Assembly: GCF_003334355.1 (NCBI RefSeq)
Contig: NZ_QOWP01000010.1
Source: Escherichia coli
Lineage (GTDB): Bacteria > Pseudomonadota > Gammaproteobacteria > Enterobacterales > Enterobacteriaceae
Reading direction: 5' to 3' (one strand)
Length of the DNA: 64,000 bases
Shown here: positions 61,925 through 62,509 of the stretch, piece by piece
Position numbering within the stretch: position 1 is the first letter of the stretch
How the letters are laid out: every line of letters begins with the position of its first letter
Notes under the pieces: model-generated
The model's database searches: none
Told to the model about the DNA's origin: nothing
What the model saw: the letters and a program-made list of their open reading frames with translations, nothing else
Program-made: the position numbers and the translations under genes

Positions 61925-62160
61925 CCTGTATTACTCCATGTATTGCCAAAATCTCTCTCTGTATCTAATTACAGGTAACTGAAAAGAAAGATATTTTTGC
62001 ACCTCATAATCCGTTATTAAACGCGGAAGAGAGACGTGAATTGTTGATGATGAGAAGAAGAAATGATGAGCAGAGTGTCCATATAAAATCCTTTTCTCGC
62101 CCGAAAATCCATTCCAATGATGAGGATCTTCAGGAATACGGCATAAATCCCAATGCCTTT
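61925..62160 (-). promoter_or_regulatory. pgaA 5' leader with multiple GGA motifs (CsrA binding sites)
   Basis: Leader-strand GGA motifs upstream of pgaA ATG, including one in the SD region (acaGGAtg); matches the described CsrA-repressed pgaABCD leader. Confidence 0.45.
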
Positions 62161-62509
62161 TTCAAAATAAATTAGGATTAAAATAATTAAATCAGAAATT
62201 CCGATGCATGATTTCGGATTTTTCGAAAGTCCTGATGAAAGGCTGCGCTACGGCACTCACGGATTTAATTGTTATTCCTAATGTATCTATGAATTAATGT
62301 TTTATAAGGATTTTCTATAACCATTTATAAGTATTTTCAAGCCTGGCTTGTTGCAAACAATGTATAAAGCACTTAGGCAATAATAATTACATTCAGCAAC
62401 TATCATCATCGGTATTGTTTGTGGGCGGAATTTCATATTGACAACAGTACAGTTCTTATATCTATTAATAATAGAAAGGGATCTACAACCTACAGATTGG
62501 TGTAGCTTT

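Follow-up and report, generated by a model that had tools for sequence, protein, structure and literature searches.

Location and annotation of the spacer

We analysed a stretch of 64,000 nucleotides of Escherichia coli DNA (the window), one end of which corresponds to the efeB-phoH-pgaDCBA / dgcT region of this species. The spacer considered here occupies positions 61925–62509 and separates the divergent genes pgaA (minus strand) and dgcT, also named ycdT (plus strand). The A of the pgaA ATG is located at position 61924 and the ATG of dgcT begins at 62510. Both the length of 585 bp and the GC content of 34.0%, compared with 50.9% for the whole window, agree with the original prediction of an AT-rich spacer, whose coordinates were exact. 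The genes in this part of the window are:

55742–56155, minus strand: pgaD (open reading frame list)
56157–57481, minus strand: split pgaC, with a 1-nt deletion in an A-run (open reading frame list, comparison with PSS-12 and K-12)
57474–59492, minus strand: pgaB (open reading frame list)
59501–61924, minus strand: pgaA, 807 aa, protein identical to K-12 PgaA (open reading frame list, RefSeq annotation of the 100%-identical region of PSS-12)
62510–63868, plus strand: dgcT (ycdT), encoding a MASE4 and a GGDEF domain (RefSeq annotation, Pfam, protein comparison with K-12)

E. coli PSS-12, in which the RefSeq annotation places pgaA and dgcT on either side of the spacer, matches this region at 100% identity over 851 bp, and 2619 complete E. 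coli genomes match it at 99% or more. The spacer is wholly absent from about 21% of complete E. coli genomes. An alignment with E. coli K-12 MG1655 (NC_000913.3) comprising the spacer and both gene starts contained a single difference in 642 columns.

The GC content of the pga-dgcT block (window 55800–63600) is 34–49% compared with approximately 53% in its flanks, which is consistent with an acquired island. On the 3′ side of dgcT, positions 63879–64000 belong to an IS3 that is found in K-12 as well. Another IS3 of roughly 1.25 kb, located between cspH and gfcB in PSS-12, is missing from the window (about 20010–20019).

No Rfam family matched the spacer when positions 55000–64000 were searched with a permissive threshold. 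The sole match of this search was Ysr251 (Yersinia sRNA 251, antisense type) in phoH at 55494–55687 on the minus strand (189 bits, E 3e-52), antisense to the 3′ end of that gene; a conserved phoH coding sequence may be all that lies behind it. Two open reading frames of 44 aa within the spacer, 62041–62175 (plus strand) and 62302–62436 (minus strand), were rejected as genes, because neither K-12 nor PSS-12 has anything annotated there. The latter also lies in the least conserved part of the spacer (55%), where other alleles carry indels of 1 and 2 nt.

The pgaA leader

In K-12 the pgaABCD mRNA has a 5′ UTR of 234 nt with six CsrA sites (Wang et al. 2005, as reported in PMC4052769 and PMC7652899). 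The AUG is located at +235, and the mapped +1 at −234 contradicts a short leader for K-12 (PMC4052769). The two distal CsrA sites lie over the Shine-Dalgarno sequence and over the AUG and account for translational repression (PMC4052769, PMC7652899). Two 5′-proximal sites are located in +61 to +81, the left arm of a discontinuous hairpin (+61 to +107) whose right arm makes up the 5′ half of a rut site (PMC4052769). CsrA opens this hairpin, which leads to Rho termination in the leader (Figueroa-Bossi et al. 2014, PMC4052769); the hairpin has been published as a deliberately weak structure (PMC4052769).

The corresponding 234 nt of the window are base-for-base identical to K-12 MG1655, the single indel of the alignment being located upstream of +1. 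All of the published elements are present: the GGA sites over the Shine-Dalgarno sequence and over the start codon, the pair of CsrA sites in the left arm of the weak hairpin, and the rut sequence in its right arm. The match to the known CsrA-repressed leader that had been predicted is thus borne out. The features of the leader are listed in the order of the window, with positions relative to the K-12 start site:

61924–61926, minus strand: start-codon GGA (caGGAug, +233, −2 from the A of ATG), kept in 8 of 8 alleles; published CsrA site over the AUG
61925–62158, minus strand: pgaA 5′ UTR, 234 nt, 100% identical to K-12 by alignment to NC_000913.3; putative start site taken from the K-12 mapping
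61934–61937, minus strand: Shine-Dalgarno GGAG with GGA +222 (cauGGAGua, −13), kept in 8 of 8 alleles; published CsrA site over the Shine-Dalgarno sequence
62010–62012, minus strand: GGA +147, AACGGAUUA, from the sequence
62013–62077, minus strand: rut-like stretch, C-rich and G-poor (22 C and 4 G in 65 nt), +82 to +146; 86% conserved in the 73%-identical allele
62052–62077, minus strand: hairpin segment; the minimum free energy (MFE) fold is the published discontinuous hairpin, −6.4 kcal/mol (PMC4052769)
62078–62098, minus strand: hairpin left arm, +61 to +81, with GGA +68 and +79 (fold and segment definition in PMC4052769)
62108–62115, minus strand: two GGA, +44 and +49, conserved across all alleles examined
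62140–62157, minus strand: 5′-terminal stem-loop, +2 to +19, with GGA +9 in the loop (fold); scores as terminator-like on the plus strand, where TTTTT follows

From +1 (window 62158) through the ATG, a segment of 237 nt, the pga strand carries eight GGA motifs at +9, +44, +49, +68, +79, +147, +222 and +233 (−226, −191, −186, −167, −156, −88, −13 and −2 from the A of the ATG), and the opposite strand carries three. The multiple GGA motifs expected close to the pgaA start were therefore found, one of them in the Shine-Dalgarno GGAG as predicted and another overlapping the ATG. GGA +147 probably belongs to the central pair of CsrA sites, if our assignment to the footprinted site is correct. The stem-loop at +2 to +19 lies outside the described CsrA sites, of which the 5′-proximal ones are placed in +61 to +81 (PMC4052769).

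Mononucleotide shuffles of the segment gave a mean of 2.6 GGA (P = 0.0004 for the eight observed), dinucleotide-preserving shuffles a mean of 5.5 (P = 0.09). Counting both strands of the whole window, 0.54% of all 237-nt segments have at least eight GGA. The motif A.GGA occurred five times, with 1.56 expected (P = 0.014). The GGA excess on the pga strand is real yet modest. As sequence statistics of this kind are suggestive only, the case for a CsrA leader is built on the identity to the mapped K-12 sequence.

Structure prediction for the leader had been proposed as a check. The MFE structures of both the full leader and the isolated 47-nt segment (−6.4 kcal/mol) contain the published hairpin (+61 to +107). 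However, neither the leader (z = +0.37) nor the hairpin alone (z = −0.49) was more stable than shuffled sequences, so thermodynamic stability is unusable as evidence. The predicted low stability would agree with the weak hairpin that has been published and adds no independent support for it. A short open reading frame starting at leader +77 can be dismissed, since it had no effect when tested by Figueroa-Bossi et al. (PMC4052769).

The pgaA promoter region

Upstream of the leader we identified three elements on the pgaA strand:

62164–62169, minus strand: probable −10 hexamer TATTTT, −11 to −6 (sequence relative to the K-12 +1)
62174–62204, minus strand: promoter block TCGGAATTT^CTGATTTAATTATTTTAATCCT, −46 to −16, invariant in the other alleles; the window lacks one base at ^
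62214–62226, minus strand: T-N11-A box TCGAAAAATCCGA, −68 to −56 (sequence; NhaR consensus proposed in PMC6307784)

The pgaA promoter is activated by NhaR, a LysR-type regulator (Goller et al. 2006, as cited in PMC7652899 and PMC6307784). The box TCGAAAAATCCGA matches the NhaR consensus proposed in PMC6307784 at 10 of 13 positions with the LysR-type T-N11-A spacing and is a candidate site. It is overlapped by an inverted repeat, TCCGA-N9-TCGGA (62200–62218), whose arms are conserved and whose spacer is variable in the divergent allele. Candidate box and inverted repeat are situated just upstream of the −35 region, in a block conserved among the alleles. A sigma-70 consensus scan of the spacer found no strong promoter on the pgaA strand, and none would be expected because the promoter is activator-dependent. 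The same scan gave one weak match on the plus strand and two terminator-like hairpins, one of which corresponds to the leader's own 5′ stem-loop seen from the opposite strand.

The single difference from K-12 is located here. A plus-strand T is missing between window positions 62195 and 62196, corresponding to −37/−38 upstream of the transcription start. Apart from the deleted position, the block TCGGAATTT(N)CTGATTTAATTATTTTAATCCT is identical in 8 of 8 alleles, including the one with 73% identity. The rarity of the deletion was assessed with an 81-nt query centred on it, which had full coverage in 4160 complete genomes. Only one of these, PSS-12, shares the deletion as the sole 100% match; among the matches listed the others carry the extra base, and no more than five records altogether reached 99% identity. 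Because an independent assembly has it too, we consider the deletion to be real, and it is restricted to one lineage. It brings the putative activator sites 1 bp nearer to the −10 hexamer than in all other alleles examined. This change could alter promoter strength or activator geometry in the lineage.

The dgcT side

DgcT is intact. Pfam assigns MASE4 (1.5e-68) and GGDEF (1.6e-49) domains, the protein contains GGEEF at residue 359 with an RPDD I-site upstream, and it differs from K-12 DgcT by two amino-acid substitutions. Judged from the sequence, a promoter and a leader for dgcT would also lie in the spacer:

62438–62466, plus strand: candidate dgcT promoter, TTGACA, 17 nt, TCTATT; block conserved in the divergent allele, missed by the consensus scan

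Near the dgcT start, one GGA lies 31 nt upstream of the ATG and another overlaps it. According to the literature, ycdT is a direct CsrA target and encodes an active cyclase, CsrA repressing both ycdT/dgcT and ydeH/dgcZ (Jonas et al. 2008, as cited). PgaCD, in turn, is allosterically activated by c-di-GMP (PMC7652899). Both the published repression and this activation fit the observation, made in the original prediction, that a c-di-GMP synthase gene stands beside the pga operon. The dgcT of the window is intact, diverges from pgaA and has GGA near its start.

Conservation among E. coli alleles

Eight alleles of the spacer were aligned: the window, K-12, five alleles of 94–96% identity and one of 73% (18SZHZ655Rt), so that the alignment represents effectively two sequence types. 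A spacer match at 60–80% identity was observed in 78 complete E. coli genomes. 18SZHZ655Rt (locus 3001–3679, about 73%) is one of these, and there pgaA and a GGDEF gene are divergent likewise. The identity between the window and the 73% allele, element by element, is:

Shine-Dalgarno sequence and ATG, +216 to +237: 95%
rut, +82 to +146: 86%
pgaA promoter region, −75 to −1: 82%
dgcT promoter block: 79%
hairpin left arm, +61 to +81: 76%
leader, +1 to +60: 70%
leader, +147 to +215: 67%
central spacer, 195 bp: 55%

Conservation in this comparison tracks the functional map. GGA +68, +222 and +233 are invariant in 8 of 8 alleles, and +44 and +49 are retained. The divergent allele has lost GGA +9, +79 and +147 and does not keep the hairpin's basal stem either, which indicates that not every element is strongly constrained.

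State of the pga operon

A frameshift in pgaC had been suspected, and the sequence confirms it as a 1-nt deletion in a homopolymer that splits the open reading frame. Compared with PSS-12 and K-12, six A are reduced to five at 56664–56668 (T6 to T5 on the coding strand), leaving open reading frames at 56639–57481 and 56157–56681. The frame is lost after residue 271 and thus before QRLRW (residues 292–296 in K-12 PgaC); a full-length PgaC, a GT2 protein of 441 aa with QxxRW and C-terminal membrane segments, is not encoded. PgaA and PgaD are identical to their K-12 counterparts and PgaB differs by one residue (protein comparison).

A 451-bp stretch of this pgaC was identical in 0 of 4359 matching complete genomes, and the best matches among those listed were all 99.8% identical, equivalent to one gap. 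Two independent read-set assemblies encode exactly this truncated PgaC of 280 aa, one with 100% identity over 1053 bp, which makes a real allele likely. A comparison of the window with PSS-12 across 59 kb shows about 23 substitutions and just two single-base indels. The other indel, seven A for six at 33758, coincides with the yccE pseudogene, which is annotated as frameshifted in PSS-12. The small number of indels together with the truncated protein in the two read-set assemblies argues against a generally error-prone assembly. We therefore regard the pgaC frameshift as probably genuine and as a rare allele. In that case the strain would not be expected to polymerise PGA, since its PgaC is truncated.

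The deletion at −37/−38 and the frameshift in pgaC are the only strain-specific points at this locus, and neither affects the identity of the leader.

In other complete E. coli genomes IS1 was observed at four different sites of the spacer (homologous to window 62131–62287), given here relative to the pgaA transcription start:

EC09: −119 to −129
XJ6.2: −38 to −45
H2, in which pgaA is truncated too: −10 to −18
EC2: +18 to +28

An IS1 was present in the spacer in 11 of the 20 best spacer matches listed. In C325 (locus 3001–3408) the homology to the spacer stops exactly at the IS1 site of EC09 (window up to 62287), an EAL-domain gene is found in place of dgcT, and pgaB is annotated as frameshifted.

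Discussion

The spacer is very probably the known regulatory region of E. coli pgaABCD and of the divergent dgcT. Based on the K-12 literature and the sequence of the window we propose the following mode of control. An NhaR-activated promoter approximately 234 nt upstream of pgaA would give rise to the long leader, whose GGA-containing sites would be bound by CsrA dimers with two effects. Once CsrA is bound to the pair of sites in the left arm (+61 to +81), the C-rich rut site in the right arm would become free, allowing Rho to terminate transcription within the leader. On transcripts escaping termination, CsrA at the Shine-Dalgarno and AUG pair would block ribosome loading. dgcT would be a CsrA target as well, and c-di-GMP from DgcT would activate PgaCD. 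With dgcT a CsrA target and PgaCD activated by c-di-GMP, a single regulator would control both sides of the spacer. By analogy with K-12, CsrA binding, Rho termination and the transcription start should hold in the strain of the window despite the deletion at −37/−38. The earlier account of this leader was correct as to CsrA repression and left out the Rho attenuation, the NhaR-dependent promoter and the lineage-specific promoter deletion.

The locus shares with the K-12 pgaABCD 5′ UTR every base of the leader, the GGA sites at the Shine-Dalgarno sequence, the AUG and +61 to +81, the hairpin and the rut stretch; it differs from the K-12 pga locus in the base missing at −37/−38 and in the pgaC frameshift. 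Its candidate NhaR elements are shifted by 1 bp towards the −10 hexamer relative to the other alleles aligned, and its DgcT differs from that of K-12 in the two amino-acid substitutions. The leaders of glgC, cstA, nhaR and Salmonella fim resemble that of pgaA in carrying several GGA sites, one of them in the Shine-Dalgarno sequence. Compared with these multi-site CsrA leaders, the pgaA leader is unusually long and has an extra layer of Rho attenuation. The Salmonella fim leader titrates CsrA (PMC4052769).

Could base composition account for the GGA richness of this AT-rich and purine-patterned spacer, leaving the motifs with no specific role? The dinucleotide-preserving shuffles point in this direction, as do the fact that the divergent allele lacks three of the eight GGA and the absence of GGA +9, +44 and +49 from the sites described in PMC4052769. 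Against it stand the three GGA of the opposite strand, the rarity of windows with eight, and the invariance of the GGA of the Shine-Dalgarno sequence, the AUG and +68. The CsrA sites were, moreover, footprinted and mutationally tested on the identical K-12 sequence, which refutes a compositional origin for K-12 and leaves it an extremely improbable explanation here. A broader role for AT-richness would be that the spacer is mainly an H-NS-type silencing platform of an acquired pga-dgcT island, to which CsrA control would be secondary. The GC profile, with 34–36% in the spacer and the 5′ half of dgcT, 40–49% in the pga genes and about 53% in the flanks, would suit such a platform, and IS1, which prefers AT-rich DNA, is drawn to the spacer. 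Yet the central 195 bp are only 55% conserved whereas the promoter, rut and Shine-Dalgarno blocks are kept, a pattern that indicates specific elements rather than bulk AT-richness. We consider a silencing platform as the main function rather unlikely; it would in any case be compatible with CsrA control of the leader.

The state of the operon is harder to judge. The regulatory region may be a relic in a decaying operon, its leader still binding CsrA without controlling a working pathway, and we regard the chances of this as nearly balanced, with a slight lean against it. PgaC is cut off before QRLRW in what is probably a real allele, found exactly in the two independent read-set assemblies, and a rare 1-nt deletion has occurred within an otherwise invariant promoter block. 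Lesions in pga are also common elsewhere (the pgaB frameshift of C325, the pgaA truncation of H2, IS1 in the promoter or leader of several strains), and about one fifth of complete genomes have no spacer at all, as given above. On the other hand, a homopolymer frameshift could be an assembly error in the window, and pgaC is intact in the close relative PSS-12. Any decay would be very recent, given that PgaA, PgaD and the leader match K-12 exactly and PgaB has a single residue changed. A relic would, furthermore, bear on the state of the operon and not on the nature of the leader. A further reading takes the lineage-specific deletion, the pgaC frameshift in independent read sets and the IS1 insertions at four or more sites elsewhere as signs that the pga control region is a recurrent mutational target, with the lineage of the window shutting down PGA but retaining dgcT and a leader that binds CsrA. 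This we consider doubtful.

The reading of the spacer as the known pga and dgcT control region is thus retained. The leader is already known in detail, and nothing is added here to the CsrA model; the analysis rediscovers a textbook case, a biofilm adhesin operon that CsrA controls post-transcriptionally in several layers, through translation, mRNA stability and Rho termination. The value beyond this model is small and consists in a lineage that is probably unable to make PGA. The rare spacing change by the −35 region could serve as a natural test of how far an NhaR-dependent promoter tolerates a 1-bp shift. If PGA has indeed been switched off, the leader RNA could live on as a transcript that binds CsrA and has no coding role. 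The scatter of IS1 in the spacer of other strains suggests that PGA expression is frequently altered in nature.
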